Source: Bugula neritina
Taxonomy: Eukaryota; Animalia; Bryozoa
DNA length: 64,000 bases
Reading direction: 5' to 3'
Assembly: GCA_964035545.1 (NCBI GenBank)
Contig: OZ037765.1
Span: 32,239,504 to 32,303,503 of the forward strand
The position numbers were made by a program, and so were the translations under genes. Positions 13,529 through 59,326 of this stretch are shown here, one piece after another. The notes beneath the pieces are model-generated. The model did not search any database, was not told the origin of the DNA, and worked only from the letters and a program-made list of their open reading frames with translations. Each line of letters starts with the position of its first letter. Within the stretch, counting starts at the first letter, position 1.

Positions 13529-14992
13529 CTAAGTAGAAGAGACTTTCTGTGGTAAAGCTATGGAGTATATGTCCAGTGAAGACAGGCTGGATGAGTGATG
13601 CTGAAAAGCAGAAGGCACATTCTGTGTCAAAGGTTGTGGTCTAGCATTGCTGAGTTCACTCATAGAATGACTCATAGAATGAGTCATACTGCTGGTCTGG
13701 GAGATTGAAGGTGATTTTGAGTCAATGCTGCTTAACTTTGGAGTATAAATTTCCAAGGAGTAACTTGATGTACTCAAATTTGAATTCATTTCTTCTGCCG
13801 TAAGGGAAGCATCTAAAATACATCAGAAAACTTTGGTAAACATTATTGACGGTTTTTAGCAGTTGAAAAAATAAATTCTATTTAGTGGTACAAACATAAA
13901 GTTAATTAGCATTGATATGCTTATAAATATTTTCAAATTGAGTCTTTAAAGTTTATTACTCAACTTTTAAAACCTACAATATACTTTTTGAAAAAAGTAA
14001 GTGCCAACTTCATTTTGTGCTGGCTTAAGCTCATTTCTCATAAAGATTGTTATAAATTTAATACTGCTGCTAATTTTCCCTTGTTATCACATGCTATAGA
14101 GTTAACAATTATAACATTGTTATAACCAGGCTATTCCGGCTATAATTAGTTTGAAGAATAAAACTATGAATCTCTATATAGCCCTCCATGACTTAGTAGC
14201 TGACAGAACAAGTAGACTTTTGTCTACTTGTATATGGAAGATCAGTAGGCTGACATATTTCATAATAATCTTCATCTTTAGTGTGATAATAAATGGTCAT
14301 CTCTCTTGATAATAAAATAATAACAGCCTAATAAATATAAGAACGGGCTCATTTAAAAACCAAAAGTCTTTTGAACATATAAACATGGTGATGACAAAGA
14401 GGCATTAATGATATTTCTCGATTAATACCACAGGCTTGTTATATATATAGAGTGCAAACTACCCATTCCATAGATTCTTGCTACAATCATCGAAAACTAC
14501 AATATTCAAGTACATTTTCTCGTAGATTGACACATTTGCTTTATTTCCATGTGCATCAAAGCCACATTGAAGTTACTCAGTTTAAATGTATGAAAATTCA
14601 GTATAGTTGGACTCTCTAATGTCTACATTACCATGCTTCCTGCTAGCATATTTAGATTACATCATCATTATCTGTGTATTATACTCACTGCTAACATATC
14701 TGAATTACATCATCAGTATATGTGTATTATACTCACTGCTAACATATCTAGATTACATCATCAGTATATGTGTATTATACTCACTGCTAACATGTACTTC
14801 AACCAGATGTTCTCTGATATCATCTCTTGATCCATGAGAGTTTCCTTGCAGTTTTCTTCGAATCAAAAGAATTAATAACATAACTACAACTATGAATGCT
14901 ATTGCAGATGGAACCCCAAACAAGACCGATATAACCACTCTTGCAGCTTGAGGATCAACATTAGAACTGTCGATATAGCCAACAAGCACCAT
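13529..14992 (-). CDS. Orphan single-pass (type III-like) membrane protein, cluster gene A, ~163 aa
   Basis: Exon 14785-14992 (ATG just after a ttgtag acceptor; TM VVISVLFGVPSAIAFIVVVMLLILLI then RRK; donor A|GTGAGT) joins in phase 1 to exon 13529-13812 (ttttag|; Ser-rich tail with SLEIYTPK, RPQPLTQNV, SSLSSLDIYSI). The tail is clearly paralogous to that of gene B. Confidence 0.75.
14636..14792. repeat. 48-bp tandem repeat (~3 copies) spanning the gene A splice donor
   Basis: ATACTCACTGCTAACAT recurs at 48-bp spacing (donor dinucleotides at 14687-88, 14735-36, 14783-84). Confidence 0.9.
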
Positions 14993-15683
14993 TTTCTACA
15001 AAATATACAAAACATGCAGCTAAAACTATTTTAAGCAGTTTAGTACTTATATAAGGCAAATAATGCTAATTAATTTTAGTAACTATAAATAAAAGGAATT
15101 GTTAAATATTAGTACATTTCATGAATGAAAAGTATGATATTTTATTTTCTCAATCAAAAATTTCAACTGGTTACAAATGATGCCGATTTGTATAATTCAA
15201 TTACATTCTTATTTATTTATTATATGCATAGTAAAAAGAATTTGTTTTATATAATTCTATAATAAAAACTGTGAAACATTTCGCACCTATAATAGTACAA
15301 TACTAAAAGCAAAGAGACATTTAAACTCTGTCCACACTGGGTTACATTTGAACTATGTTTGCATTTAACCTTCTAAATGCTTTTTGGAATGCTTTTAGTC
15401 TTTTAATTGTATACTACACTATTATAATATTCAGGTAGTATTTACAAAATATCTGCTAGGAAATAAAACATGTGTTAAGGAAGTATACAGAAAAGTACAT
15501 ATTTAACACTGAAATTTGGCTAGATCATATCACTGAATAAACTTTGTAAACACTCGCACACACATTGCAGCTGTATTCACAGCAAAAAAGTAGCAGTCTT
15601 TTTTCAAGGATAAAATTTTTTTGAAGAATATTTGTCATATTGAATAATTATTAGTAGAAAATATATTTGTTCATTTATAGTAA

Positions 15684-15740
15684 TTTACCTGCTCAGACAA
15701 TTTACCTGCTCAGACAATTTACCTACTCAGACAATTTACA
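15684..15740. repeat. 17-bp tandem repeat (TTTACCTGCTCAGACAA)x3
   Basis: Directly visible. Confidence 0.85.
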
Positions 15741-16925: not shown

Positions 16926-17898
16926 TCAACAGGAGCTGGAGGAGAAAACTCCTGGTATGGAGTGGATGTCAAGAGATGACAGACTGGAAAGGCTGTACTG
17001 GATAGAATGTACATTCAGTGTCATGGGTTGAGGGTCAGCGTCAGTGAAGTCACTGCGGCAGCTGGAAAGACTGGCGTTACAGTTGTAGGACATCAACGAG
17101 CTACCAGATTTGGGAGTATAAATCTCAAGGGATAGACCAGAGGAATCCAAATTTGAACTTAATTCTTCATGCGCATTTACAAATTCACCTGAAAATATTT
17201 AAAGGAAATTTTTTTAGAAACATGAATAATTATCATGGAACAATTTTTTGGTTATAGTAATTTAACTGGTCGATCAACACTGAAAATTTGTTATTTGTAG
17301 CCTATATACAATTGGTTAAACTATAATTTATATATTATTATCTCAAAATTACTGAACCAATAGCTATAAAATCACTTAGTTGTTATCTGGCAAATTTTTG
17401 ATTCCTTAAAATTTTATAAATTTATCTAGTCTATATATATTTGTAACAAATTAGAGGACGAAAATAAACAAAAGTTTCTTATAAACTAGCATTAACTGTG
17501 ATAAAATAGGTTTTTCACAAACTCTGTTTAGATAAAAATATTGTGTGCTAAATATTAAAAGATGGCTCAAACCTGCAAATAGCAGTTATATTTAATACAA
17601 TTTTAATAGATTCTTAAAGAATGTAAAACTCTTATACACATGAGATGATTATCATAGATGCTGGTACTATTGCACTTTGTCTATATCTGTATATATACTC
17701 ACGGGCTTCAAAAGGAACACTTTTTGACAATCTCATTCCTGCCTTTTGACTGGTTCTTAATTCATGGATGGCAAGGAAGACCAAGCATCCTGTTAGCAAG
17801 GAAAGAGACACTCCAATAAACCACCAAAGTTCAGTTTCAGACGGGAAGGAATTTCTATAGTCGCTACTTTCAAGCAGATCTAATGTCGGCACATACAT
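16926..17898 (-). CDS. Orphan single-pass (type III-like) membrane protein, cluster gene B, ~152 aa
   Basis: Exon 17703-17898 (MYVPT..., TM LWWFIGVSLSLLTGCLVFLAI, donor C|GTGAGT) joins in phase 1 to exon 16926-17188 (ttttcag|; LSLEIYTPK, DADPQPMTLNVHSI, SLSSLSSLDIHSI). Confidence 0.75.
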
Positions 17899-19911: not shown

Positions 19912-19914
<3 letters not shown>

Positions 19915-19980
<66 letters not shown>

Positions 19981-19996
19981 TATATACTGTATATAT
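19915..19996. repeat. (TA)n microsatellite
   Basis: Directly visible. Confidence 0.95.
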
Positions 19997-22315
19997 ATCT
20001 CAATCTGTGGACAGCAGCTGTTTCGGGATTTGTCCCCTCATCAGCACAGAACAGAGTACCATGGCCCACACCTTCGCAATAGTAGAAACTTATAGTTTTA
20101 CTAAAGCTACATTTACATAGTTACAGATCATATGATTAGACTTATAACATAGTAAATCATAATTAGATATTTTAACAATTTATTTTAAAAATGCATATAA
20201 GAAGATTTTTTTTAAATAAACCTGAAAATAATTTGCTAATGGTGATAAACACGCTACAATAACTTTAAAGTAATTAACTATTCTAATGATAATGATAACT
20301 ACAAAGATTTATTAAAATGTAAACACAAATAACTGACCATATAAACTTTTCACTCACTGCACATGCCAGTTATAACCTTAAAGCTGCAGCAAGCTGATCA
20401 ACATGCAATAACTTCCCCAGTCTACACGTTAGTTATCAATATAGAGGCATATTATTTTTCCTTTGTGTGCGATTATATAAGCATCCGCATTCATAGCTAA
20501 TCCATAGACTACAACACAATAGCAGTTATTGATTTATTGAGTATGGAGCAAAGATGGGGGAAGCAAATTTTTCCAGTTTCCCTTATACAAAGGCTAAAGG
20601 GGAAACGGAAAAATCTTTATGCATTGCTGTGCTTTTGAAAAGACAACTCTAATTTCCAAGTGCTGAAACTTTCAAAAGAAAGAATTTCACTAACAATGCT
20701 TACCATAGAAAGAATACACAAATTGCAAATAATCGTTCTGTAGGCCTATGTTCCATATATAACTCTAGCATTAGCACCTCTATAAGAGTAGATTTTACTA
20801 TAATATAAAAATTTTGATGCTTTCCAAACATTTTAGACACTATATGATACAAAAATTAATTTAGTGCATTTTGCAGAGATATTTTAGCTTGTGTGATAGT
20901 GCAAGCATTATAGAGAACAGTTTCCAAAACAACCATGCAGGGTATTTTAAAGTACTTAAAAATCATGTAGGAAAATAGATGTGTAGCAACTTAAAACCTA
21001 ATTTGTTCGTTGATAATTTATAGAGAAGTATATTATATTTGACTTTCTGTAGAATTTGAATTTGGGATAAATTAAATAGTGAAAAGAAAACTTTTGAAAC
21101 TTTAAAAATATCCTATGATAGAAAGCTATAAAATGGCTGTACATGACATATTACTGAGAGAAAATATTACATATAATTACTTATATTTAGTAAATATAAG
21201 ACCAGAGGTTTTTTTCCTATACTTTGAGCACATATACAAACAACTGCACAACAGCCGCTTTAAATGAATAGCTAACAAATATTTTAGGTATAGAATCTTA
21301 CGTATAAAATTTTTGCTTTCAAGTGTAATACAAAACAGTATCGGCATTATTTGGTGCATTCGTGACTCATTTTAAAAGGAAAAAAAGCAAACAACTTCTC
21401 TGACTCATAATCAACACTTCAACAGTATCTTCTCTGTTGTGAACTATGGCTAAAGTTTATATAATATGCTTTCATTTTCATGGCATTTGACCGAAATCTA
21501 GTATAACAGAGGCATGGGAGATTACTCCTGCTAAAACTATTGATCTAATTATAAAGAGCAGACGGTACCTTCAAACATGCCAAGTTATATGGCTAGTTCA
21601 AGGTGAAGGTCATACATCGTATTTATCAATAAAATAGTTCATTCTACTCTTTTACGACTAAATAACTTTATACTGTAAAACAGGCATAAGTGCTAGAAAG
21701 TTCTAGCTTGGCTAACGAAATAATTGGGAATTTGTATCAATGAATCATTGTCTCCACTTATCGAAGGTGTGTGGCTCAAAGTACTATATATTTATATTAT
21801 ACAGTGTTTATTTATAATGTGAGAATTTCATTTATTTTTATTAATTGTTGCACATTTGTTACATGTTTGTACAAAACTTATGATAAGAACTATAAACACA
21901 ATCTTTGCTGAAATATAACTGATATGAGATATCTAATTATTAGCAGAAAAGAAATTAAATTGGAATTTAGTTTTCTATTTTTGCACATCATATTGTAACT
22001 CAAAAAGTTGTAATTTGTAAGCTTGATTAATTGTGCTATATCTAAACGTTTTTGTTTTATTTACAAATTTAAAAGCATTTAATAATTTTCATAAAAACAA
22101 AACAAACTATATATGAAACATTCAATTAAATTGTTTTAATGAACGGCAAGCAGAGCTGAAAAGCTAAAAGAGCAAAGCCAAAAAGAAAAAGATCAAGTAA
22201 AATAACAAAAGCAATCAAATTGTATCTTTATAATTATATAAATAACGACAGAGATAAGTAGTGTAATGATGTCTTTCAAGGTGAAGGTCAAAATTGCATT
22301 GTTGTTACTTTTTTT

Positions 22316-24050
22316 TTAATCCATTACCTCAAGCTTCAATGACTTTGGGTCTGCATCACTAAACATACTGTGCTGCTTAGAATGAAGGGAGCGTGTTGAA
22401 CGTCCGCTAGATGAGTTGATGGACCGAATAGACAGTGCCAAACTGCTAGAAGAATCTGAATCAAAAGCTGTTTCCTTTACCATAGACTCATCTAAAATTA
22501 ACAATTATTTTAAAATAATATGAGCAATTGTATTTTAAAACTATGCCACTCATGCATAATCTGTGATGAGAGACAGTTTATATACATAAATATAATTCAG
22601 CAAAACAAAAATTGAATTCTTTTCGATATTTTTGGAAACAAAATCATGTGTTCTTACTTGTGTCGATTTTAATGTCAGTTAATGTTGTTGGAAGTCTACT
22701 TGGATCAAAATTATCTGCAACATACAAGTTTATAACTGGTATTATGGTATATTTGTTTTAGAAATAATTAACCTAAATCAAGGTATAAGAAATGCTACAT
22801 ATAATGATGGTGTTGTACATGCACTCAATATATATCTAAAACCTATATAGCTAGTTATATTTCATACTGTAAAGTGGTTCTTGCACTCTTACTATACTTA
22901 CTATTTATTGTGGGTTCTGTTTGAGGGTTGATGTTGAATTTGAAGAAGTATATATAAAAAGAAACTCCTCCAAAAATTAAAACAGCCGATAGCACAACTA
23001 GGCTTATAGTCCATAGTGCAGGTTGGGATATTGTTGGTGCAACGGTAGATTCACCAGCGTCTTTTGGCTTTAACTTCTTACCAGCATTATTAAGAAATCT
23101 GTTTATCTTAAATTTGAGGCTGCAGTGTAGTGGTACATTATAAGTTGGAAAAGAGGCTGTGTAATTAGTGGTATAACCTAGAAAATGGTCTACAATCACA
23201 ATCAAAACACTGTGTCAATTGTCTGCACAGGTTTTTACTTTATTATAGTATTACAGGTACATATTAATTTTGTTTAAAAATATTAAAGCGGTGCTTATGA
23301 AAAAAGTTATAACACATTTGATATACTATAGTTAATGAGAAAAATTTTACACCTATATAAACTTCTAAATCTCTTCTGTAATATTCATATAGACTGGAAC
23401 TCTATCTTGTTAAAATCAATATGTTGCTACTAAGTAATTTGTAGTCTGCAAATGTTAAATTTTATGCTTATATATTACTCCAGTACACACACACAAACAC
23501 ACAAATTCTATCTGCTATTCACAAAATAATATATCAAATGTTTTACACTTCCAAGTATAATACCAACAGTAAAGTTAATTCATTGATGAGCCCAGCAGTA
23601 AACTAAGCGCAGGGGATCTGAAAGCCTCATATCGACCAAGTAATTTTGTGGATGCAGTCCAAGTGAGATTTTTACATAGAAAACTAGTGTTTGCTCCAGC
23701 GTACTAAGTATAACTAGTCCTAGTCACATGCAGTAAATTAAGCTTTCATAGAAAGGAAATTGTTAGAACATAGCATAAACTAACAAAATTGGATCCTTTT
23801 AATACTGAAAAGATTGTATATGACCAAATAGTAGCTAGTGTATCCAGATCAATACTATACTGAATATAGCATAGCTTATTACGTTTCTTACCATGTTGAT
23901 TTCTGTAGCAAATATCCTTATATGGAAACTCCAATTCTGCACCATCTTCAGCCTCTTTTATAGAGGAATATAACTGGTATTGCAAACTCAATCGACATAG
24001 TATAACTAACAATAAAAGTGTTTTGATAGTTTGTTGAACTTTCTGTGACA
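22316..24050 (-). CDS. Orphan type I membrane protein, cluster gene C, ~207 aa (start uncertain)
   Basis: Phase 1-1 exon 23892-24050 (signal-like TIKTLLLLVILCRLSL; donor G|GTAAGA), phase 1-1 exon 22902-23189 (N-glycosylation sequon NYT; TM LWTISLVVLSAVLIFGGVSFYIYFF; donor A|GTAAGT), and terminal exon 22316-22491 (SSSSLALSIRSI, SDADPKSLKLEVMD*). The last two exons are better supported than the first. Confidence 0.65.
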
Positions 24051-24077
24051 CTAAAACACAATTTAAAACATATACAT

Positions 24078-24099
24078 AACACACACACACACACACACA

Positions 24100-24138
<39 letters not shown>

Positions 24139-24154: not shown

Positions 24155-24850
24155 AAATAGAATACTAAGATATGTATGAGTCTATCACTTTCACTGTAGG
24201 TTACTATAACAATACTTTAAGTTGATGGGTAGTTTAGTAAAGTAGGTCATATAGTAATGATTGAGACTATGTAAGAAAGTAGGTGATCAATTCAGCTGAT
24301 TTAAGGTACTGCTATATATCCTGCTTTCTGATGAAACTATAAAGCTACTCATACAACTATAAGTTACTAAAATATATCTACTACTTAAACTAGTACACTT
24401 TTATCCAGATAAGTTGCATTTTTTCACATTTCTACATCATTATATGTGATACATACTAAACTCCATTGCGCTTTACTATGTTACTTCAGCTCTCCTAGTA
24501 ATTCCTCACTCAAAGCAGCAAAAGCCATTTGTTCGTACTATGTACACGTTATGCATGACTAAAAACTTTTGATAAATGTTTTTGTTAAAATGCAACTTGA
24601 GGACAATAAATATACTTACTTATATATGCATTTCCAAAGCGAGTTTATCTAATCTGCCAAATACGGAAGTAAAGTCATCGTACGAAAAAAGGATATTCAA
24701 AATGGCGATGGCACTATTATAGTTCAGAGTTGTATTCTCTTGCTACTTTTAAGTTGTCTTTGCCATAGTTGCATCTGATATGTTTTGCTGTAAACGATGT
24801 TCACAGACATCCCATTATATAATATTTTGTCAGTTAGTTTGTTTCTATAA

Positions 24851-25203
24851 GCCTAGGGCCACACTGTGCGTATTTTCGCATGCGAAAATTGAAACCACAA
24901 GTGCGCAAGCAAGCAAAGGTGTTCACTGTAGCGTCAGTGATGCGTGATAAATAAAGCTTTCATTTTTAAATCGCACTCGCTTTCAATAAAACGCAATTTG
25001 CTGGAATGTAGCACTAAAATAAAGAAATTGGGCCCGCTGAATAACTACCAGCCAATTAGGTGACGACGACAAAGACGATTCGCACTTGCGTTGAGAATGC
25101 TGAGCGACAAGTGCGAATGTTTTCTCAACGCGTACAGTGGACACCTTTGCTACTTGCGATTTCAATTTTCGCATGCGAAAATACGCACCGTGTGGCCCTA
25201 GGC
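24851..25203. mobile_element. MITE, PIF/Harbinger (Tourist-like), 353 bp
   Basis: ~50-bp TIRs GCCTAGGGCCACACTGTGCGTATTTTCGCATGCGAAAATTGAAA / TTTCAATTTTCGCATGCGAAAATACGCACCGTGTGGCCCTAGGC, flanked by TAA on both sides (3-bp TSD). Confidence 0.9.
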
Positions 25204-26944
25204 TAAGAATATTGTTAAGGGCTGTCCACCCTGAGGCAGTTCTGTACAGAATGGCAAAACCAGAGTCTTGGCAGATTCATTCAGGCTATTGTTTTAAAAA
25301 TGGTAATTTTCTTGCTAGCAGAGATTTTGCTTTTAATAGTAAAAGGTAACTTATTGGAGCGTTATGTAAATATGCAATGTTTAAAATGCCCAGCCATGCA
25401 GTCACAGGATGCTGGTTTCAAAAAGTGTCTGTTTGTCCAGCTGCTCCTGCTCCAATTGTGTCATTATTATACCTGTGCCAATTTTACGGTGCCATTTTTA
25501 CCTAAAATATCACTTTGCTTAGCACATCACTGGTTCTCTACAAACAGTGACAGCTTATAAATATACAGTAGCGATTTTTACAGAATTGCCTCCACATGAA
25601 CAAATTACCGGTTTAATATTTATATGTGCATATAATTGAATTATTATATACTAATCATATTATATTATACAGACATTGTGTTAAAAATATGCAATTATTA
25701 ATCCAATTGTGAGAAAAGTATAAGATTCGAGTAAAAAGGATCTAAGCTAAATACAAATGCAATGTTCAAATTGAAAACTTCTTTTTAAAAAGTCATCTGT
25801 GAAGTCAAAAGTGAAGCCTGTCACAAAAGTAATCACAATCAAGTTGATTTTATTTTCGGAATTATTATTTTATATGTTGAGCTTTGTCATTTCAAAACAT
25901 CATCACATCATATAAAAAATTAAAATATAAATCAGTGTAAGCCAGCTTGCTTGATTAAACTTTCTAAAAGCTAAATTTGATAAATTATCTTTGTGCAAGA
26001 ATCAAACGATTGAATAAAATTAGCAACACTACATGCAGTTGTACTAATTTTATAATAATGTACGGCAAAGTTGCTATACAAGTTTAACAAGTAACATATT
26101 TGACTAGCTATAGCTGATACTCTGATAAAATTGCTAGCCATTGCATGTATCAGTTACCATGACTATATATACTATGTATTATAAGTTGATGATTCTCATA
26201 TTTTGTATCATACGAAATACAAGCTATATTTAGTAGCCTGACGTACACTGTATTATGTTTCATTATTCTTTACTCAATACAACAAACATTTTTGGCTTTC
26301 ATCTTTATCTGTTCAATCTGTGTATTGTGCAGTGATTAGGAAAAATATGTAGCAACTCGATCTTTGAACGGAATCATTTAACTCTATAGAAATATAATCT
26401 CTGTTGGTGCAAATAGCATTACTAGTTATATATGAAATTTGAAATATAAGATAACATGAAACTTATAGTTAGTAAACTACTAGTAGTAACATGTAGAAAT
26501 GTTGAGCACAACAACTCCAAATTTGTGACACAAATCTCCAAACCACCTTCAAAGCAAAATTTGCAATTCTTTTTGCAATAAAAATTCTATTACATTTTAA
26601 TCAAATATTTTATCAAATCATAGAAAAATAAGACAGTTACATGTTCATTTAGGACTTTAGGTGCAGCAAAGAGATTTTAGTAGCCCAAGCTCTTTAATTT
26701 TCTTTATAAATTTTTGTTTGGAGCGCAAGAACATAACTTCTTTTGCTAAATTTTCTATCTAGAACGTACAGACTTTTCCCAATTTCTCCATTACCGCACC
26801 TACCGCTAAATATTTGAACAAATTAATGATTAGTTTTTGTTATAGTCTATACATGAAGATATAAAATTATAGAATATTTGTCCTGAAACATATGTCATTG
26901 GAAGTTGTCTCTGCTAGCTGCAGAACTAAAAGAGAAGATAACAA

Positions 26945-27806
26945 CTAATTACTGTAATCTATTGAATGAATATAGAGGGAAAGTGAAGAGCTACTAGATC
27001 TCGTGGCCTTCATATCACTGCAGGAGTCAAGTGAATGAATATTAAGAGACAGTCCAAAAGAATTAAAACTGAGGGAACCTCTTCTTTGAGAATTAGCCAA
27101 TGAGCATTGAGTATTGCTTCTCGAACTTCGGTTTAGCAAGTCGTCAGTACTTCGGCTCTTTTCACTAACCAGCATCAGGTCATAAAATTCCTCTGAAACC
27201 AAAATGTAATTTTTAAAGTTGAGAAAAATTTGAAGATTTCAGATTTAAATTTTTTTTTAATAGTATTTTAGCTCTAAAATGTTCAACTATATAATAATTG
27301 CATTAAAATTTTACTTGACCTGTTACATTCCTGCTAGCTCTTATAGTTAACCTACTGTATGTATATGAATTATATTTATAAGAATGCAAGTATAATGTAA
27401 ATTATAATTAGAAAAACCTGAAAGACTTTAAACTTGTAAACCTAACACAGTATTATAACATATGTGTATAGTTTTCTTAGTTTATGTCTCATTTGTATAA
27501 CTATATAAAGTCATTAGTCATAGTTTAATTTGGAGTGGAAGCAGTTCATATATAAAAGTAAGTTTTTAAGCATTTGAAACTTGACAAACTGTATTGATTT
27601 AAAACACTCACTTTTCAAACTTCTCGCATTCTCTGTTGTCACTTGATTTTCGTTGCCATGGCAATTTCTTGCACTCCAAAAATATTTGAAAAGAAAGACC
27701 AAAGAAGAGACTCCATGCACATATATTATTAGTAACAAAATGATTAAAATTTTATTGAACTTTACGTCTTCTTTCAACTCATCTAGAGTTTTTTAATGTT
27801 TAACAT
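26945..27806 (-). CDS. Orphan single-pass membrane protein, cluster gene D (5' end frameshifted or incomplete)
   Basis: TM exon ending at 27612 (ILIILLLIIYVHGVSSLVFLF; donor A|GTGAGT) joins in phase 1 to exon 26945-27192 (tttcag|; EFYDLM, GLSLNIHSL, SSSSLSLYIHSI). The ATG at 27806 is out of frame by 1 nt across an A6 run. Confidence 0.6.
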
Positions 27807-28818
27807 GTGGTGGTGATCTATGTTTGTGCCAATTGAATCAGTAACAAAGTGACAACTAAATTGAAATTTTATCAAATCCAATGTGAGAAGTGTTGACACG
27901 ATTTTTTTTATTCATATAACAATCATAATTTTACCAATAAATTTAAATTTAGAATTATATACTAATGACTTAGTTTCCAACTTATAATATATTTGCCCTA
28001 TATATTATGTGAGCCCATGTTTGAATGCATGTCAACCCTACTCTGTGATGATTAGAATTTATTTGTGATATTGTGATAGAAGCATCTTGAATTCATGGCA
28101 CATCATCATTCTAATAGCATTATTATGCTTTTATTGATCCATTCTGCATTCAGAATCTCATTGTAAATATATTTAACATATTATTTTACAAATTGTTTAC
28201 TGGGAAAACTATAAGTTTTTCACTTAAAAGTGATTGAATTATTTTTCCTTATGCCTACAGAAGTGTGTGATTAAAAAATATATTATATAGTAATTCTGAA
28301 ATTGTATAAACTCTTTTTTTTGAGCTATATTGTAGCAATTTCAACTTTTATTTAAAATATAAATACAAATAAGAAGCAGCCATAAAGTGCCAGGTCAAGA
28401 GTTCAGACTCTGATTAAACTATCTTAAGTTTTATCCTGAATAGCTATTTTTAATAATTGTTTACATATTTTTATGTAGAGCATATAATAATTAAGGTAAT
28501 ATATTATCAATCAACTGTACAATTTTCTCCCCTGTACATTTTATAATGAAGGCAGCTGATAAATGTGAATACATCATAGATAACACTATTAAAATAATCT
28601 AACACCTAAACTACAATCATGAAACAATGGCACCTGGAATAGATTAAAAGCTCAATAAAGCATTATATAAGTATAGGGATATTAAAATAATAATATGTCC
28701 CATCAAGAAATTATTTAGCCTAATTTTATGCTGATAACTTGCTTCACCAATATAAATTTCATATAAACATGATTAGGAGTGATTTAGAAATTGTCTTCTC
28801 TACATTTGCAGGTGGAAG

Positions 28819-31800
28819 TTAATATGAGCCACTGTACTCAGGTGCAGGATGACTCGGCAATAAAGAATGTCTGTTTAAACTAGTGATGCTTTCTTCTGGT
28901 TGATTTACGCTAGCATAGTCAGAAGGTCGTAATGAGTCTGGAGATGTTGGTAAGTATAGCAGGGGAGCAGGTAAACTAGAGGTAGTTGAGGAATGGAGAT
29001 CATCTCCCCTCTCTTCACTGACCAATGAAGGAGTGCTGCTAGTAATTGTCAGGTCTTCATTTTCTTGAGGATCTTCAAAGTCTTCTGAGATTAGTGTGAG
29101 TTGATCTTAAAACAAAATTTCTATCAGTTAGGAAAAAAATTTGGGAGAGTTAATTTTTTATCTTGGAATTGAAAAAAATCATTAATTAAGAATAATATTT
29201 TACATAGCAGGGAAGACGTTAATGTAGAAAAATGACTATATAATCACTATGATCGAGATTGAATTAATACTCACCTTCATTTCCCAGGTTAAGTAATAGG
29301 GAGTCAGTAAATGCTCTGACGTTCTGGTTAGGTGATGGAAAGTATTGCTGGATCACAGATAGTTGTGCTTACAAAAACAAAAACTTGCAGATAACAGCAA
29401 AATACATCATGGTTGTCCGTTGTAGGCAAAGCAAAAAATTCTATGACAGATTTTTTTGTGGTGAAGCTGAATTTCCTGTATATCCTAACAGAGGCAATGA
29501 TTTCAAGGGAGAAAATTTAGCAAATAAACAGTCTAAACAAACCTGTTAGTGCTTCCCATCTCCTTTGATATCCAGCATAAGAGCGACAGAGTATGACAAT
29601 AACCACAATAAGCAGAAGTATGATAACTCCACACAGTACTACCGGTATTACAGAAATGATAGGATTTTTACTGTTTAGCGGAAATGTTGCCTCTTCTTGT
29701 ATATGTAGTTTGTCTTTTTCAAGCATACAGCTGGAAGCTCCTGCATAAGGATATAAGCTCATGAAATTTCTTTCATAATTAAGGTTCTGAATTAAATTCA
29801 TTAAATGCATTGTCGGCGCAGTATCAAGGTTATGAACTGCAAAGAGAGATATAGTAAATTAACCGAACAGATTTAATAAGCTCACTGTTACCGCCCTTTG
29901 GGTAACCGTATTTTCTTTGTGACTATTAATCCCTTGCAGCGCTCCAATTTCGGTTCAGTCGGACACCCGAAATAGTTTGGGGGATTCCGGATTTGGGTGC
30001 CCGATGGGCGATCGGACACCCGAATCCGGGCCGAAGATCACAAGCCTATAATACATTCTGATTGACGGACCACACTCTGATTCTGCTCTCTTTCATAATT
30101 ACTTTGAGATAATGTTCTAGCATTGGTTCTACTGACTCTACACCTCAGTAATTTTAGTGCACAATTTGTTTTAAAGTTCTTGTGTACGAAGGAATTTATT
30201 TAATAAATAAAGCAAATACTAAGCTACCATCCTTTAGCTATTTGAATAATTTTAGAATACCTTCATATGCCCACAAAGGTGAGTTTCTTACAATACAGCA
30301 TCTACCCATTTTGCAACTGTATCCTTTAAGCTGATGAGATCCATGTTTCCTTTCAATTGAATATTTGATTTTAATTGAGTGTAATACCATGTCTACAAAG
30401 TGAACAGGAGAAATCTTGTCTGTAATACATCAACTGCGGGACTAATTAGTTTTTAACAATATGAAGTAAAAAAATAAATTGGAGATATTACAAAGTAAAC
30501 ATGAACAAACTTCTTCTAAGATACCAAACAATGAAACATTTATAGCAAATTTTTGTTCGCAATCTATAATCATTGTATCAGCACGGATGCTTATGTATTG
30601 TGATTCAATCAATGGAGAGTGGATATGGATGGAGGACACATAAGCAGGCCACAACTCTACTTTTTGTCTATTGCCAACAGTATATTTCTCACAAAACTAA
30701 AATTCAAACTCCTACTTGAACTTGAACTCAAGCTCGAACTTGAACTTAGACTTGAACTTGAACTGTAACAATTATTTTGACAATTAAGTATAAATTGCCT
30801 GCATCTTTATAGCAGGAGGGAAATTGAGCTACACCCACTCATTGAGCAAAAACTGTCAGTAAATAGCTATCGCGAAAGCTTTCACAAAAAGCTTCTGATC
30901 GTTACACAATGATTTTCTGAAAGCTACCAAAAAACTCCTGCAACAATCATTAAATTATATTACCAAATTTATTTATTTAAATTTTAAAGTATATATATAT
31001 AGGTATACTGACTTATTTTAGAAAATTAATTAGTATTATAGGTAAATAAAAATAAAAATAAATAACAGTTATGAACCTCACAAAAGTTTATAGTCACCAT
31101 CCCCGTGAGAAACCCCTGATGAAAATAAAGATTTTTTTTGTTAAATCGGGGTAAGGACTTATTCAGATGAGGCACAGGAGCAATTATGACTATAGATGCT
31201 CTTTCTAACACCACCAATGGCTTTTACTGGGGTTTGAACCCATGACTTCGTGTTTATTAAGCCTGTGCTTTAATCTCTAGACTATGGCTGCTCCCAAAAT
31301 AATATAATTATGAGCCTAACTCAAATAAAATCTTCAATGATATTAAACTTTACTGAATTCGCATTGTAACTTTAGTAATAAATAGCTAATAAAGTGTAGG
31401 CTTATTCCTATATCATTATAACAAACTAAACTTGGGCAATCTTTATTAATTAAAGATATGGTTTTTTAAAATGCTGTCGAAGTGGCTGAAAATTTTATCA
31501 TTGCAATTTAGGGTTGAAAATTTGTCAGCAAAAATACTGAAACCAATATACTAGCATATATATGCATTTGCAGTAATAAAACACTTGCATGCTGCTCATA
31601 TTATATATAATTAGCTAAGGTGACTGCCATATGTTATTAACTTTAAATTGCTGGAGGTGAAAATTAAAAAAAAGGTAACATAGAAAACAAGCTTATATAC
31701 AGATCAGTCAAAGAAACCTGAAATTTGAACAAAAATTAGTTTGGAGCAAATAAATTTGTTTTAAAACATAACAAAATAAACTAGCTGAAGATGGCTATTT

Positions 31801-32296
31801 TTTATAGCTTGCGGTATAAATCTTAATGTTTTAGAATGCTACTCAATTCAATTGAGGACATAATTTATGCAACAGACCAAACTTGAATAGGTTTGGCTAG
31901 TAGTAATGAGTGTGTTTCTAGCATTAAAAGCCCATAATTTCAAGAAGCCCAAATATTTGCTTTCAGAGTTCAAAGTTTTCTTAGCATTATGCTAGAATTT
32001 GAAATTATGTCCACCGCTAAAATTTACTATAATAGAACTATATTTTTACATATTTTACATATACCTATATGATAATATACATGTATATAATATGCACCTT
32101 CAAAGAATGACTTTTCTGTTGACTTAACATCCTCAAAGTTGTCATACTGTGAATTTAAAGGCGTACAGAATTCATCTGCAGAATTAGCCTGGAAGTTACA
32201 TCTTAAAAGTTCATAGAAATACTCCATTTCAGTACATTCATGGCCACAGGCTACTGATAGAAGTAGCGGCAGGACAAGAATTAGTCTGGGTCCCAT
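28819..32296 (-). CDS. Orphan type I membrane receptor, cluster gene E, 5 exons, ~334 aa
   Basis: Exons 32098-32296 (signal MGPRLILVLPLLLSVACG; CTEMEY..C..C), 30261-30392 (..CKMGRCC..), 29543-29836 (stalk plus TM IISVIPVVLCGVIILLLIVVIVILC), 29275-29367 and 28819-29105. All introns are GT-AG and phase 1; total 1005 nt open. Confidence 0.75.
29930..30048. mobile_element. GC-rich DNA transposon end fragment in an intron of gene E
   Basis: Direct and inverted TCGGACACCCGAA sub-repeats ending in GATCACAAGCCTA; composition is unlike the flanks. No partner TIR found. Confidence 0.45.
31155..31292 (-). mobile_element. tRNA-headed SINE-like element, family 2
   Basis: The reverse complement contains GGGTTCAAACCCCAGTAAAAGCCATTGGTGGTGTTAGAAAGAGCATCTATAGTCATAATTGCTCCTGTGCC, matching the 12.1-kb copy. 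Confidence 0.6.
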
Positions 32297-33821
32297 GCTA
32301 TTCTAAAAGGAAGTGATGCCTTAGCATATGTACTAGGCTAAAACACCCACTAATAACCAACCATATAGGCTACACTATACAATATAATTTGCAGAACTTT
32401 ATAATGCATTATCACTATTTTGCTTATATATATAGTGAGCATTAAATATATAAGTTTTTTCTTATTACCCATAAGTACAACTAAACTAATATAAATATAT
32501 TGTTATAACAATTGATATTTTTCTCAATTAGAATATAAACGCTGCATGTATCCTACCCAACTTGCACAAGTATTTCATATACATTACAATACATTACAAA
32601 TACTTGTACTTGGGTACTCACCTTATACTGTAAGTGACTGCTAGTGTCAGTATTTACAGACTAACAACAGCTTTTCCCAAAAAAAACCAAAAACTCAAAC
32701 TAGTCATGGTACTAACAACTGACTACATATAAATGGAAGCTTCCATATCAGCTATAGCTCAAAGTATAACTAAAGAAACTTGCTGATAAATATACATTAA
32801 TGTGACGTGATTAAAGAAATTTACGAGAGATAACGTGCAGCTTGAAGTTAAATAATATTATTATCTAACTTCAAAGTTTTTCCTTTTATCTCGTGTAATT
32901 GTTTTTCCTTATTTTCTTTCAAGCTTTTTTCCATTATATACAAGATGAATTATAATCTTTAGGTTGGGTAATATACCAAGGATGCTAGTAAAACTTAAGT
33001 TTCATTGGTATTACTCAACCAAAAAATTACAACTCACCTTATATAAATAATAGAGAGGAAACAGTTTAACAGACTTGGAAATATACAAAAGCAATTTATT
33101 TGGATAAAGTCTAATAGCATTATTATGCTTTTATTAACCCATTCTGCATTCAGAATCTCATTGTAAACATATTTAACATATTATTTTGCAAATTGTTTGC
33201 TGGGAAAACTATAAGTTTTTCACTTAAAAGTGATTGAATTATTTTTCCTTATGCCTACAGAAGTATGTAATTAAAAAAGATATTATATAGTAATTCTGAA
33301 ATTTTAAACTCTTTCTCTAAAGCTATATTGTAGCAATTTCAACTTTTATTCAAAATATAAATACAAATGAGCAGCAGCCATGCATAACGTGCCAGGTCAA
33401 GAGTTCAAACTCTGATTACACTATAATAAGTATTATCCTGAATAGTTATTTTTAATAATTGATTACGTATTTTTATGTAGAGCATATAATAATTAAAATA
33501 ATACATTATCAATCAACTGTACAATTTTCTCCCCAGTACCTCTTATAATGAAGGCAGCTGATAAATGTGATACATCATAGATAACATGATTAAAATGATC
33601 AACACCTAAACTACAATCATGAAACAATGGCACCTGGAATAGATTAAAAGCTCAATAAAGTATTAAATATGTACAGGGGTAATAAAAATAGCAATATGTG
33701 CAAGCAAGAATTCACCTAGAGTGTGATTGCATGCTGATAGCTTACTTCACCAATATAACTTTCATATAAACATGATTATGGGTTTTTTAGAAATTGTCTT
33801 CTCTACATTTGCAAGTGGAGA

Positions 33822-36800
33822 TTAATACGAGCCACTGTACTCAGGTGCAGGGTGACTCAGAGATAAAGAATGTCTGTTTAAACTAGTGATGCCTTCTTCT
33901 GGTTGATTTACCATAACATAGTCAGAAGGTCCTAATGAGTCTGGAGATGTTGGTAAGTATAGCAGGGGAGCAGGTAAACTAGAGGTAGTTGAGGAATGGA
34001 GATCATCTCCCCTCTCTTTACTGACCAATGAAGGAGTGCTGCTAGTTATTGTCAGGTCTTCATTTTCTTGAAGATCTTCAAAGTCTTCTGAGATTAGTGT
34101 GAGTTGATCTTACAACAAAATTTCTATCAGTTAAAAAAAATTTTGGGAGAATTAATTTTCTATCTTGGAATTGAAAAAAAAATTCCGCTAAGAAAAATAT
34201 TTTGCAAAGCAGAGAATTGAAGTTAATGTAGAAAAATGACTATAATTACCATGATCGAGATTGAATTAATACTCACCTTCATTTCTCTGGTTAAGTAATA
34301 GGGAGTCAGTAAATGCTTTGACGTTCTGGTTAGGTGATGGAAAGTATTGCTGGATCGCAGATAGTTGTGCTTAAAAAAACAAAAACTTGCAGATAACAGC
34401 AAAATACATCATGGTTGTCCGTTGTAGGCAAAGCAAAAAATTCTATGACAGATTTTCTTTGTGGTGAAACTGAATTTTCTGTATAACATAACAGAGGCAA
34501 TGATTTCAAGAGAGAAAATATAGCAAATAAACAGTCTAAACAAACCTGTTATTGCTTCCCATTTCCTTTGGTGTCCAGCATAAGAGCGACAGAGCATGAC
34601 AATACTCACAATAAGCAGAAGTATGATAACTCCACACAGTACCACCGGTATTACAGAAATGATGGGCTTTTCACTTTTTGGCAGCAATATTGCCTCTTCT
34701 TGTAAATGTAGCTTTTTTTCTTCAAGTGTATAGCTGGAAGCTTCATAAGGATATAAGCTTTTGGATTCTTCACTTTTTAGTGGGTCTTCACTTTTTAATG
34801 AGTCTTCACTTTTTAGTGGCAATACTGTCACTTCTAGTGAATCTGGTATTTCGAAGTCCTCTTCAAGTGTATAGCTGGAAACTTCATAAGGATATAAACT
34901 CGTGCGATCTTCCTCATAAAGCTCTGCACTGAATTCATCAAATGGGACAACCCCAGTATCAAGATCATAAACTACAAAGAAAAATATAATAAATTAATAA
35001 AACAAACTAAATAAGCTCTAGCATTGCTATTGGCACAATACTGAGTCTCGCCATTACCTCCTGTTGGGTGATACCCCCATGTTATCTACTTTCTAATTAA
35101 ACATATTGATGGAATTTAATATAACAAAACAAAAAGTTTTAAGCAAAATAAGAATGCTCCAACCCCCCTATATATATACACACTTTGCCCCACTGTAGGC
35201 CGTAATGTAAATTGTCAGCCATTTTTAATGTGTCTGGGCTGAAGTTTTCAAAGTGCGCTATTGGGTACGATCTATGACACCTCATTGGACATTTATATCC
35301 AATGGATTCATTAAGAGCCCTTTTTTTAATCAAGCAGTGCTTGATTCAAACATACTGTAACCGTACAGGAAGCTTGGACATTTGTAAAAATGGCTGGCAT
35401 TTTATGCTACGGTCTACGGTGCGCAAAGTGTGTCTATATATATAGGGGGATAGACTTTAACAGCTGTTGTTATCAGTGACTATAATATACAGTCAGAACT
35501 ATCTATTATTTTGTTTTAAAATACTAATTAGATTAGCTAGGTATCATTTTGAAAGACGTATGCAGTTGGACTCATTGTTATGGCTAACAGAACTAGCTAA
35601 AAGACTCGTCACGAAATTGTTTAAAAAAGCTGTATGGCAAAATGAATTTCAAATAGAATAGAGTTGAGCTAGAGATTTCTAAACTCAGGTCTTATAGTGC
35701 ATGAGATATTAAAACTCTATAATTAGCTAAAAAGTGCAGTACCACAAAACAAACGAAACAGTGAAATCAGCAAACAAAATATTGATTAAACAGAGACCAA
35801 GTAGCCTACAGATCATTCAGTAGAACGAAAGTTATTGAATTATGTGAAAAAGGGCAGATAATCCTTAACAAGATTATATAACCAAAGTAAATCATACTAA
35901 TAGGATATTGTAGTAACTCCAAACATTGCAAAGCAGGGTCAAGATTTCGGCACTATAATAACAAATGGCTGTGGTAACCAAAAATGATACATGAAATGCC
36001 CCAAGCTCCCCAAATCTGCTACATATATTTAATTGCATATTTTCAAAATTAAATCTTCAAAATTTAGGTATATTTGCTTATTCTACAGCTATAACTTACT
36101 TAATTTCCAACTATTAATTAGTTTTTGTAAATATTGATTTCAGATTCCATAATTGATGACAAGCCCAGCAGAGCTTATAGCACTTTTCCAAAGTTGTAAA
36201 CCCTGATTTTAAAGCAGAAACACACTGCTATGTCTACGGAATGCAAAAGAGTAAAAAACTCACTCCTTACTTTACTCCCTATTATATGCTCACAATAAAG
36301 TATGTATAATCTGCTCCCGTTATATATACTTATCATTCATACTTTTAGGTCTATTATTTAGTCCATACCCTTATTTTTCTTTCTGCTATGCTCCATAGCT
36401 ACCTATAGCTATAACTACTCATAGTTAAAACTATACTGACTTGTGAGTTAAAACATGTATACAGCTATGAGCTCTTCATATATATTGATATCAGCCTAAC
36501 TGTAGCTAGTTCAAACATTTGTTCATGCAGGGCTACCCCCTCTTATTTTAATGTAATATGTTAAGAAACGTAGTTATGTGTGTTGTATGTTAACTATCAT
36601 GCAGCGCTTAACTTTTTGTGTTTCAACAACTTATTGAAGAAAAGGACATGTTTATAATAGTGCGTTACGAAATACTATTCCACTATCTCACATGTTTGAA
36701 TTTGGATAATTTAACATAAATACTGATAACTAACATAGTTACTATAATAGTAATAGTTATATTCTACCTCTTACTGGTGAAGCATTATTTTTTAGTCATT

Positions 36801-37218
36801 CAGCATATTGCGATGAAAGCTTTGAAAGGTAGCCTAATTTTCCTACCTCTTTAGTGTACGGGATGCTCTGATTGATCTGGTGTTTTTCCATGTATTTGTT
36901 TGTCTACAGTTAAACTGATTTTGAGTTGAGCAGATGAACTGGCTCAGAGTGGTTTCCATGTATCAAACTGAGTGAACTGCTGAACTGAGAATTATACATG
37001 GAGACTCGGCACTCACCATGCAGAGGCTTGCCATCATCATTTACTATGTGTGAGAAGTCGTCCCATTTTTTGCAAACAAATGAGTCATCTTTATTGCTAT
37101 ACTCCACCTGCTCATGAGAATGTTCCTCAATGGTACATTGATCTCTACAGGCAGCTGACATAAGTAGCAGTTGCAAAACTAAATAGAGAAATGCTTGTAT
37201 GCTTTTTCTTGTCGCCAT
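33822..37218 (-). CDS. Orphan type I membrane receptor, cluster gene F (paralog of E), at least 4 exons, ~335 aa
   Basis: Exons 37017-37218 (signal AFLYLVLQLLLMSAAC; CTIEEH..C; donor G|GTGAGT), 34546-34971 (acidic repetitive stalk plus TM), 34277-34369 and 33822-34108. All introns are phase 1; total 1008 nt open. The last three exons closely match gene E. Confidence 0.75.
35164..35449. mobile_element. MITE with ~65-bp imperfect TIRs in an intron of gene F
   Basis: CCCCCTATATATATACACACTTTGCCCCACTGTAGGCCGTA..CAGCCATTTTTA vs TAAAAATGGCTGG..TACGGTCTACGGTGCGCAAAGTGTGTCTATATATATAGGGGG. Confidence 0.8.
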
Positions 37219-39117: not shown

Positions 39118-41740
39118 TTAATTGCTGTTGTTTAGCATGTAGTTACTGTTGTTTAGCATGTAGTTGCTGTTGTTTAGCATGTAGTTACTGTTGTTTAGCA
39201 TGTAGTCCCTGCCAACTGGCAGACATGGTAAAGAGTGGATGTTCAGTGAAAGAGAATTAGACTTGTGAAGACAGTCACAACTCAGGTCGTGTCTGAGGGG
39301 CTGAGGAGAACTGCCAGCAGACCAGCTGCTGCCGGAGTTGGTGGATGCAGTTGGATGGTTGAGACTGCCAAGACTGGATCTGAGAGAGTAGATGAAGATG
39401 GACAGGCCAGATGAAGATCCATCAGAGGAACGCCAGCTGGTTCTGTAAGAAGTTTGAGGATGGTGTTCTGGTACGCCAGTCATGAAAATCCCTGAAGTGG
39501 TTTCCTCAAACTTCATCAGTTTTTTTAACTGATCAGTTTTTCTCACTGCAACACATTTCAATGAGTTTAGGGGGATAATCAAATGAGATTTATAGCATTT
39601 TAGACCTTAAAAACATTGTGCAGTATTTCAGTAACTTTTAACATGGAGATCAAGTCATGTTGGATAAAACTTTTGTTTGCATTCCCAACTAAACTTTTGT
39701 AACTAAAACCAGAACATTAGAACTGCAATTAAAATTTAAAGCAGTCAATAGTTTCAAAAAATCACATCCAATTTTAAAGCTTTTCGGAACACATAACTTT
39801 CCACCTTTTATTTGGTTAGTTTTGTGTTATTCACTACACATACTTCCCATGGTCTATAGCAGATGCTCGCAGGGATAGATTTGTGGTTTCATCTGATTGA
39901 CATTGCTCCCACCATGAGTGAAAAATTCATTCCATAATGCTAGTTTGGGAGTTGCAATAATGTCAACTAGAGTTCGTTGCTATACCCATTAACTATAACT
40001 AGTATAGATGTGAATCATGCTTCCAATTGTTATGGTCATAGTCAGCATCTATATATAATATTGTCATAGTTCTTGCTAACAGTTAGTCTGTATAGATATA
40101 GATTTGTCACCACAATTTATATTTTTCCTCCTACTCGTGTTACCAGAAAGATACTGATATTTATTAAGTTTACAACTTATATGGTATAAACTATAACATA
40201 TACTATGAGATCATGCATATACACTGTGTTATAATAATTTAAGCTAATAAATTCTAACTTCCTAATTATTTTGATTTATGTAATAAAACCTATTTGTAAA
40301 AGTACTAGCTATAACTTTTCTGTTGCATCTGGGTTTATTTGTGTTATTGTTATGTACTTGTTTTCATCTTGTTATAGGTTATTATAAGGTCAACATCAAT
40401 TCAGCATTACAGAAGCTACAGACAGACTCTTGCACTTTGCTATATACCTGTTTTGTGTTTTCAAGCTGAAAATTAGTTAATTGTTGCTTTACCTGCATGC
40501 ACTGGTATTTGGGAAAAAATAAAATTTCCTTAAACTTCAATACATTCAATATATATAATTGTTGACAATCGATAAAAGCTGTCTGTTATCTAAACCAAAC
40601 TTGCCTTGTCTTAAGGTTATATGCAGGAACTAAACCTTTCGAGTGGCCCATCTAGACTAAATAGTATGACTCACCCCCAGACAAGCAATGCTGTCTTTAA
40701 AGTTGTTTCAATGGCCATAATATTATTATAAGCAAAACTATAGAGATTACCATGAATAATGATGGTGTATTTGTCATCATAAATAGTGCAGTTATTGTTG
40801 AAAAAAATCACAGATTGCCGTGACTACATTTTATTGCAAGGTAAGTTAAACAGTTGACTGCATAACATATTGCAATAACCTTACTATACTCTTATAACAG
40901 ACAGCATTTAATAGTTGGGCAATTCCAAGTTCTATTGAAGAAAATGCGTTTAAAATTAGCAATTCACAGAAAGGTTATTTGCGATACTGCATGTTTAAAG
41001 TAAGACAACTTCTTTGCAACAGCTTTATGTTAACCTGAGTGTAAATTGCGGCATTTTTCGAGCAATTTTTATTGAATCTTGGATTAAATGATTATGGGGC
41101 CAGTGCCATTAATTGTCAACAAAATTTTTTCAATGCCCAAAAAGCCTATAACATTCAATTAGCTACATGAGCAGTTATATCCATGAAACACCAAAACTTT
41201 AATAAAATATTGCAACACTATCCACAAAGTATAACTTTTCAAGTGAATGGGTGAAAGCTATATTTAGCTTGTGTTACAGCTGCATGAAAATTGTAATGTT
41301 ATACAACACTGGATTATACCATGACTCATAAACAATGACTCAGGCTGATATAATTTCTACAGGGAAGTGTATGTTATACTAAGAGTTAAGAAAGCTCACA
41401 ATTTATAAATAGCTGAGAAATTTGATAGCTGATACTAATTTTTTGACAAAAATGAAACATTCTTAAACAAACAAATTTTAGTTCTGAAATTACCTCATGC
41501 AGTGACGTGTTGTTATAGTTATAAACGCATTGTAATGAGTAGGTAACACAGCCATGAAAACATAACATATCTATTAGATTAGAGAACATTCTGAAAAGAG
41601 TACAAGTGACCTTGCAACATATACTCACCAGAGCAAAACCAAGGTTTGATGCTTCTCTTCTTGAGAATTGTCAGCGTAGCAAACATCAGCATGATGGTGC
41701 CACAGGGAGCCAACAGGATGAAGGCCCACTCCCAAACCAT
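39118..41740 (-). CDS. Orphan single-pass (type III-like) membrane protein, cluster gene G, ~179 aa
   Basis: Exon 41629-41740 is below the ORF-track cutoff and encodes MVWEWAFILLAPCGTIMLMFATLTILKKRSIKPWFCS with donor G|GTGAGT. It joins in phase 1 to exon 39118-39545 (ttgcag|; SSGLSIFIYSL, SSPQPLRHDLS, SLSLNIHSL, (YMLNNSN)x4). Confidence 0.72.

Positions 41741-43680: not shown

Positions 43681-59326
<15,646 letters not shown>

Follow-up and report, generated by a model that had tools for sequence, protein, structure and literature searches.

What kind of locus lies between the SLC34 phosphate transporter gene and the L3MBTL-like gene of the bryozoan Bugula neritina? In a stretch of 64,000 nucleotides from this animal (assembly GCA_964035545.1, contig OZ037765.1, positions 32,239,504 to 32,303,503; hereafter the window), a preliminary description had proposed a tandem cluster of seven orphan genes for single-pass membrane proteins, which would form one lineage-specific receptor or adaptor family in birth-and-death evolution. 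From our point of view, there is about an even chance that this cluster of predicted single-pass genes, which fall into two unrelated families, encodes diversifying recognition receptors with signalling tails; the immune or allorecognition role is something we infer from the evolutionary pattern.

Seven co-oriented gene models (g1 to g7, numbered from low to high window coordinate) could be rebuilt from the sequence, all on the minus strand and flanked by SLC34 and a gene with MBT and SAM domains according to Pfam. The proposed layout of a membrane exon and a serine-rich terminal exon was borne out, as every model contains a single membrane segment by hydropathy (19-residue Kyte-Doolittle maximum 2.16-3.75), followed by a phase-1 GT-AG intron and a last exon with a Ser content of 19-30%. 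All 14 introns fit the claim of canonical GT-AG sites in phase 1 throughout; phase 1 alone, which is shared by six of the eight traced introns of the neighbouring SLC34, is not distinctive. When ranked by a splice matrix for which 15 donors and 17 acceptors of SLC34 and the L3MBTL-like gene served as the training set (from the end of the L3MBTL trace, a donor and an acceptor were left out), the 14 donors all lie in the top 8.4% of 3647 GT sites, and 13 of them in the top 5%. A decoy scan, the thresholds of which were chosen after the genes had been seen, returned eight hydrophobic open reading frames (ORFs) with a strong phase-1 donor and seven Ser-rich ORFs on the minus strand of the cluster, compared with one and one on the plus strand and means of 0.47 and 0.68 (maximum 3) in 60 shuffles. 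The GC content is 0.398 in the exons vs 0.302 in the remainder of the cluster. Judged by donors, decoy scan and GC content, the gene pattern is far beyond chance, and because the same two-exon structure is also annotated in two B. neritina genes (see below), we take the models as real genes with predicted junctions. The frames are open in six of the seven models. In line with the earlier remark that no folded domain could be recognised, none of the 18 cluster exons tried matched a Pfam family at cut-off, and neither a profile search nor tblastn revealed an eighth member within the window. The start of g3 depends on a guessed one-base first exon ending at 24620. Upstream of the g5 start, two consensus GTGAGT donors were read by eye on the minus strand (33037 and 32620), which probably mark 5' untranslated exons.

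The term orphan has to be qualified, as g1 has homologues in B. neritina. A profile of the five tails of g1-g4 and g7 (family 1, see below; g5 and g6 not included) had two matches at E<=0.001 among 1.84 billion representatives, namely P0121, which is g1-like, and P0122, which is g3-like. P0121 clusters with the B. neritina protein EB796_001511 and the fragment P0124, and a further search added EB796_001512 from the same species, such that the relatives found amount to two adjacent hypothetical B. neritina genes and three metagenome fragments. EB796_001511 (KAF6040185.1) and EB796_001512 (KAF6040186.1) are true homologues of g1, unnamed and uncharacterised, with the same two-exon layout and the junction at the same residue. 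They differ from g1 at 25 of 159 and 29 of 158 residues, respectively, carry adjacent locus tags and each lie on a 173,462-base contig, i.e. there are two copies there vs one in the window. According to the accessible text of PMC7576161, the EB796 models are AUGUSTUS predictions built with a transcriptome; they support the g1 structure independently, without proving expression. At the g1 donor itself, a 48-base tandem repeat (14640-14793) triplicates the site, with the extra copies located after an in-frame stop, and the start of the intron at this donor is similar in P0124.

Since the tail profile matched just two of the 1.84 billion representatives, and one of these falls into a cluster with a Bugula protein, the picture of a lineage-specific, fast-changing single-pass set with motif-only tails was upheld. 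No annotated B. neritina counterpart of g2-g7 was among the homologue-search results, and no relative outside this lineage was found within the length and word limits of the searches. Of 944 candidates in a homologue search with the stalk/membrane exon of g6, which was restricted to lengths of 106-340, none reached E<=1, and the g2 tail had no usable match in an atlas search. In two metagenome scans for related loci, the first gave 155 pattern matches, none of which was confirmed, and the second gave 0 matches. A sequence search of the PDB yielded one chance match for the tail profile (E 5.4) and none for the g5 ectodomain, and the single-sequence structure model of the latter had no Foldseek match, which is uninformative given its low confidence (predicted local distance difference test score of 60). 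The best feature matches of P0123 were stannin (0.91), orthopox A36R (0.90) and LIME1 (0.89), each with <170 shared features, which we read as the generic likeness of a helix plus a disordered tail.

The postulated single family with a single layout is not supported, since two unrelated tail types are present. In shuffle tests of the last exons, g1, g2 and g7 were tied together (z 4.5-16), g3 was linked to g2 (z 4.8) and g4 weakly to g2 (z 2.9), whereas the tails of g5 and g6 showed no link to the other five (z -0.7 to 0.7). The cluster thus comprises two unrelated tail families, namely g1-g4 plus g7 (family 1) and the duplicate pair of g5 and g6. In the tail tree, only one of six inner branches was supported. 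The tails of family 1, which are likely unstructured, contain one to three copies of a motif of the type S-x-[LY]-S-L-x-I-x-[ST] and, except for g4, a Px[PS][LM]xx[DNE] motif. The outer parts range from 2 to about 150 residues: g1, g2 and g7 have almost none, start at or near the membrane segment and continue with basic residues behind the helix; in g5 and g6, a leader, a small region with Cys residues and an acidic stalk are combined with a tail rich in Ser and Pro; and g3, with a leader and about 100 residues ahead of the helix, probably has a leader and an ectodomain like g5 and g6. The proteins had also been called highly divergent, which is supported for the set as a fast-changing whole but not for all pairs, as the tails of g1 and g2 are 51% identical and the 3' parts of g5 and g6 share 91% of their DNA. 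Within the latter pair, membrane plus tail are 90% identical, compared with a protein identity of 35% in exon 1, where the synonymous divergence (dS) is saturated.

It is this uneven distribution of differences that points to diversification. Between EB796_001511 and EB796_001512, 13 of 17 residues are different in the outer part, 12 of 26 in the membrane, 1 of 25 in the juxtamembrane part and only 3 of 90 in the tail, and such strong variation of the outer and membrane parts over a near-constant tail is the pattern of diversifying recognition receptors. The outer part of g1 is like that of EB796_001511 (3 of 18 residues differ), whereas its helix is closer to EB796_001512 (6 of 26 differ) than to EB796_001511 (12 of 26). 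Among the 23 informative columns, the first 13 speak 12:1 for EB796_001511 and the last 10 speak 8:2 for EB796_001512, with the switch point at the helix start (permutation p=0.0024); g1 hence appears to be a mosaic of the two Bugula genes. By a count on their alignment, g3 and P0122 agree at 29 of 30 residues within the two motif blocks, compared with 9 of 28 outside them. For the last exons of g1 and g2, the ratio of non-synonymous to synonymous divergence (dN/dS) is 0.28 at a dS near saturation, which suggests selection on the tail. A weak hint comes from X1, a DNA sequencing run whose contigs may not be independent of the window: difference-free contigs at 20596-24064, 24165-24741, 25757-26252, 29610-30671 and 31227-33229 have a depth of 61-65, compared with 105-118 over and beside SLC34, and although depth is no copy number, g3 and the outer exons of g5 might be absent or very different on one haplotype. 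Because two adjacent g1-like genes are found vs one in the window, g1 looks like a mosaic and g4 is broken, gain, loss and recombination at the cluster are indicated, and to this extent the proposed birth-and-death evolution stands, although not as that of one family.

A diverged and recombined outer part together with a homogenised tail, as it characterises the Alr, fester and fester co-receptor (FcoR) loci, was found in the cluster as well. The fester genes of Botryllus diversify through mixing of ectodomains and tails by recombination, with presence/absence haplotypes in addition, and the fester and FcoR families, like the two families here, lie together and have similar C-terminal but dissimilar outer parts, according to the available sections of PMC11507803. 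In the same sections, however, fester and FcoR proteins are described with Sushi domains, three membrane segments or 520-610 residues, and Tyr-based immunoreceptor inhibitory motifs (ITIM) or hemITAMs, whereas the cluster proteins comprise 140-335 residues, five of them with Ser-based motifs, and no sequence relation was found. With the Alr genes of Hydractinia, the cluster shares the tandem arrangement of single-pass genes, pseudogenes, low identity between members and motif tails in several unrelated groups, but the Alr proteins carry Ig and Fn3 ectodomains and tails with ITIM or immunoreceptor Tyr-based activation motifs (ITAM), as far as the accessible text of PMC9546547 goes. No Ig, Fn3 or Sushi domain was found at the Pfam cut-off in the exons tried. 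The cluster hence resembles the fester/FcoR and Alr loci in its evolution but belongs to neither.

Vertebrate transmembrane adaptors of the LAT, LIME1 and PAG type have a tiny outer segment, one helix and a long motif-only tail with many Tyr motifs; they are not known to occur as variable tandem arrays. By hydropathy and flanking charge, g1, g2 and g7 resemble them in their short outer segment, one helix and inside tail, whereas the five family 1 tails lack several Tyr-based SH2 docking motifs. Their 0-3 Tyr per tail include one YxxPhi motif in total, vs 2.2 expected by shuffling, and no Tyr-based motif exceeded chance in the tails. No ITAM or ITIM match was found in the tails of g1-g4 and g7, and the tails gave 0 matches to the calcineurin PxIxIT, beta-TrCP and PPxY patterns. 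The idea of a charged-pair adaptor as in DAP12 was rejected, as the g5 and g6 helices have no charged residue. The same applies to a likeness of the g5 ectodomain to TNF receptors with a single cysteine-rich domain (such as BCMA or BAFF-R), since g5 and g6 share only two Cys columns and no Pfam or PDB match was obtained.

How might such proteins work? In the explanation that we favour, the genes would be transcribed and spliced as modelled, and the tails would face the cytoplasm, the net charge being more positive on the tail side of the membrane segment in six of the seven models. Engagement or clustering via the variable outer and membrane part would then gather the tails, the Px[PS][LM]xx[DNE] motif would dock a Ser/Thr kinase, with TBK1/IKKepsilon as the best guess by likeness to the STING tail, and the kinase would phosphorylate the flanking S-x-L-x-I-x-S repeats, which in turn would bind an effector; the role would lie in telling self from non-self or in immune recognition. 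By way of duplication and recombination or gene conversion, outer parts would be exchanged on the homogenised tails. The identity of the kinase is the weakest step of this scheme, and we hold the named candidate to be rather unlikely.

The patterns LxI/Vx[ST] and Px[PS][LM] were derived from these tails, so that their counts, nine occurrences in five tails vs 0.28 in shuffles and four in five tails vs 0.11, respectively, show recurrence and not function. The proline motif reads PxPLR in g7, PxPL in g1, PxPM in g2 and PxSL in g3, and is missing from g4. The core PxPLR thus occurs in one of the seven tails (shuffle p 0.006, post hoc), and the PxPLRxD of g7 arose in 2 of 10,000 shuffles, likewise post hoc, as it was noticed among many possible motifs. 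The consensus for TBK1 binding in STING is (D/E)xPxPLR(S/T)D (PMC9343627, PMC11387596; also PMC7733315), and a pLxIS motif stands two residues before it, as the available passages put it. The likeness to the vertebrate STING tail described there lies in an unstructured, modular tail of linear motifs, a PxPLR that is followed at a distance of two residues by Asp (g7) and a neighbouring Leu-x-Ile with serines. TBK1 requires a hydrophobic residue at +1 and prefers F/Y at -2, according to the accessible part of PMC3408500; the +1 residue is hydrophobic at seven of nine motif serines vs 48 of 159 among all tail Ser/Thr, which is partly built into the pattern as it asks for I, L or P.

A considerable number of points speak against this lead, however. 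The strict STING consensus is present in none of the seven tails, since in PQPLRHD of g7, the S/T position is taken by His and the acidic residue upstream is missing. The LxIS of the IRF-binding pLxIS motif is likewise found in none of the seven, the Ser of the family motif lying one residue later, and the distance from the first LxIx[ST] to the proline motif is 27-39 residues vs two in STING, i.e. the spacing is about ten times longer. The -2 residue is aliphatic, with F/Y at none of the nine motif sites, and two of these sites end in T-P. The STING tail is moreover called vertebrate-specific in one of the papers that give the consensus, and shrimp STING binds IKKepsilon without the motif according to the accessible part of bioRxiv 10.1101/2022.12.18.520954. 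Unlike STING, the cluster proteins have no ligand-binding domain, and their membership in the STING family was rejected, as STING has four helices and a cyclic dinucleotide-binding domain, compared with one membrane segment each and no Pfam match here; any likeness would be convergent. We therefore regard TBK1 docking by the proline-motif tails as a lead only, and an improbable one. The full scenario, namely that bryozoans independently evolved polymorphic single-pass receptors with STING-type TBK1-docking and phospho-serine tails and that the cluster, with a gene content specific to the haplotype, is their histocompatibility or innate-recognition locus, appears distinctly less probable still.

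The more general reading as diversifying recognition receptors likewise has observations that weigh against it. Half of the acceptors are mediocre: seven of 14 rank within the top 10%, and the poorest is at 37%. With 2-24 outer residues, g1, g2 and g7 offer little for a ligand-binding receptor, and membrane helices tolerate hydrophobic swaps, so that divergence of the helix need not be adaptive. The single ITIM-like matches in g5 and g6 are reached by 39% and 33% of shuffles, and a TRAF6-like PxExxD, present in g5 only and lost in g6, by 20%. Among the alternatives, the one that fares best is that these are real, fast-evolving genes for gamete recognition, adhesion or another non-immune surface role, the tails of which dock other partners. 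Sperm-egg systems, too, involve small single-pass proteins whose outer parts change fast, and the failure to find a canonical immune domain with Pfam or a Tyr-based motif above chance would fit here as well. Conserved, repeated Ser motifs in long tails, however, point to active signalling, and the mixing of outer parts and tails matches described allorecognition families; neither excludes a non-immune surface role, which we consider unlikely, although less so than the explanations that follow.

It is also conceivable that the cluster is largely decaying, i.e. that it consists of old duplicates under relaxed selection, several of them already pseudogenes, and that the variation is drift. In this context, g4 has no in-frame start and a 5' acceptor rank of 78%; its nearest ATG (27806), which is separated from the frame by six consecutive A (27789-27794), is off by a single base, for which a null allele, a pseudogene or an assembly error could be responsible. 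An X1 contig has two extra bases at 17085, an apparent insertion that would shift the frame of g2 before the later motifs. For membrane plus tail of g5 and g6, dN/dS is about 1.1, based on few changes (5.5 synonymous, 19.5 non-synonymous), a value that does not indicate purifying selection and would fit relaxed selection. Tandem repeats have expanded within g6 and g7 as well as at the g1 donor, and many high-copy repeats are present in the region. On the other hand, the low dN/dS of the g1/g2 tails, the motif blocks that are kept between g3 and P0122 while the spacers change, the open frames and strong donors of the models, and the intact g1-type models in B. neritina all argue against general decay, which we hence deem quite improbable.

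Slightly less probable, from our point of view, is the existence of fewer than seven transcription units with phase-1 exons spliced in mixed combinations, for example the outer part of g5 with the tail of g4. As all introns are in phase 1, any donor would fit any acceptor in frame, and the tail acceptor of g4 is strong (top 0.9%), whereas the membrane exon of this gene lacks a start. Yet every tail exon has a stop followed within 600 bases by AATAAA or ATTAAA, signals that are common in AT-rich DNA, and in B. neritina, the g1-type genes are annotated individually, each with two exons. Least probable of all is that the tails represent phospho-clusters of the CK1/GSK3 type that bind beta-catenin or a comparable developmental effector in the manner of the SLSSL motif in cadherins and APC: the tails have 20-26% Ser with serine runs before each motif, and SLSSL occurs three times in g1 and g2 vs 0.06 in shuffles (post hoc), but these two genes are homologous and their matches not independent, SLSSL is absent from g3, g4 and g7, the conserved core of the family is LxIx[ST] instead, and copy-number variation is unexpected in a developmental regulator.

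The cluster offers a tangible candidate that can be genotyped and that bears the evolutionary signature of known recognition loci. Bryozoans are listed among the groups with unknown allorecognition genes in the accessible part of a 2011 review (PMC3342096), and a survey from 2023 reports no Toll-like receptors in Bugula neritina as far as its available text goes (PMC10279657), which is why the cluster appears to be a worthwhile candidate. Judged from titles and the beginnings of abstracts, no later identification of bryozoan allorecognition genes was found, nor, outside subscription journals and supplements, a bryozoan family of this kind; no paper mentioning the accessions of the two Bugula proteins was found either. 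A fair label would be a lineage-specific family at a locus of known kind, distinguished by tails with Ser motifs and by a membrane helix that varies; the Ser- instead of Tyr-based tail motifs and the variability of the helix itself are what set it apart from Alr and the fester co-receptors. If the lead to TBK1 proved true, a module like the STING tail would exist outside STING and outside vertebrates, and variable recognition at the surface or in the membrane would be wired straight to TBK1 in a lineage reported without Toll-like receptors.

Table 1. Predicted gene models and other features of the window (aa, amino acids)
Feature	Position	Strand	Remarks
g1, predicted model	14992-13529	-	163 aa
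g1 exon 1	14785..14992	-	start, short outer segment, membrane helix, basic stop-transfer; junction position shared with EB796_001511/001512
g1 last exon	13529..13812	-	Ser-rich tail, two LxIx[ST] and PxPL
g2, predicted model	17898-16926	-	152 aa
g2 exon 1	17703..17898	-	start, short outer segment, membrane helix
g2 last exon	16926..17188	-	three LxI/Vx[ST] and PxPM; z=16 vs g1, dN/dS 0.28
g3, predicted model	24620-22316	-	226 aa
g3 leader exon	23892..24050	-	signal-peptide-like; start codon split with guessed upstream exon ending 24620
g3 ectodomain/stalk and membrane helix	22902..23189	-	
g3 small cytoplasmic exon	22658..22714	-	
g3 last exon	22316..22491	-	one LxIxS and terminal PxSL; both motif blocks kept in P0122
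g4, predicted model	27782-26945	-	without start
g4 membrane exon	27612..27806	-	ATG 27806 out of frame
g4 last exon	26945..27192	-	two LxIxS, no PxPL; z=2.9 vs g2
g5, predicted model	32296-28819	-	290 aa
g5 exon 1	32098..32296	-	signal-peptide-like leader and small Cys-bearing ectodomain
g5 stalk and membrane helix	29543..29836	-	
g5 small cytoplasmic exon	29275..29367	-	
g5 last exon	28819..29105	-	Ser/Pro-rich tail; ITIM-like and TRAF6-like matches, both within chance
g6, predicted model	37218-33822	-	335 aa
g6 exon 1	37017..37218	-	leader and small Cys-bearing ectodomain, 35% identical to g5 exon 1
g6 stalk and membrane helix	34546..34971	-	acidic stalk with internal duplication
g6 small cytoplasmic exon	34277..34369	-	
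g6 last exon	33822..34108	-	protein 91% identical to g5 last exon
g7, predicted model	41740-39118	-	179 aa
g7 exon 1	41629..41740	-	N-terminal membrane helix and basic stop-transfer
g7 last exon	39118..39545	-	two IxS motifs, PxPLRxD, terminal 21-base tandem repeat; z=8.0 vs g2
PQPLRHD in g7	39286..39306	-	nearest match to STING TBK1-binding motif
Duplicated block, copy 1	28110..29759		3' part of g5; 90.8% identity over 1660 bases to copy 2
Duplicated block, copy 2	33110..34759		3' part of g6
SLC34 phosphate transporter	5167..9332	+	flanking; nine exons traced, one further 5' exon beyond trace
L3MBTL-like gene	43681..48938	-	flanking (MBT, zf-C2HC, SAM); 5' exons reach further upstream

The last exon of SLC34 has its best match in the bryozoan Watersipora, with an identity of 67% that is the highest among the top matches, ranked after a longer annelid protein of 1191 residues. 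In the region of this gene, a full-depth X1 contig differs from the window at six sites within 8533-9620.

The region had also been described as rich in local duplications and transposons; both duplications and high-copy repeats are indeed present. Between g2 and g3, non-coding local duplicates with 78-83% identity (18074-18637/20149-20744 and 19594-19897/20745-21024) are split by a repeat insertion, and the C-terminal end of g7 is formed by 3.9 copies of a 21-base repeat (39125-39206). A very high-copy element with 53-base inverted ends and an X1 depth above 250,000, likely a miniature inverted-repeat transposable element, lies at 24850-25204, just upstream of the guessed first exon of g3. 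The high-copy stretch at 10731-10802, with an Rfam tRNA match (39.5 bits) and related pieces near 767-873, is likely a tRNA-derived short interspersed nuclear element. Inverted repeats of 884 bases with 97% identity (54921-55804 and 57538-58413) enclose ORF fragments, one of which matches HTH_Tnp_4 (E 1e-12); this is a DDE-type DNA transposon with long terminal repeats. Finally, the introns of the L3MBTL-like gene contain long simple repeats at 48953-49327 and 52680-53215, namely 18 copies of a 21-base unit and a GT-type array of ~535 bases.

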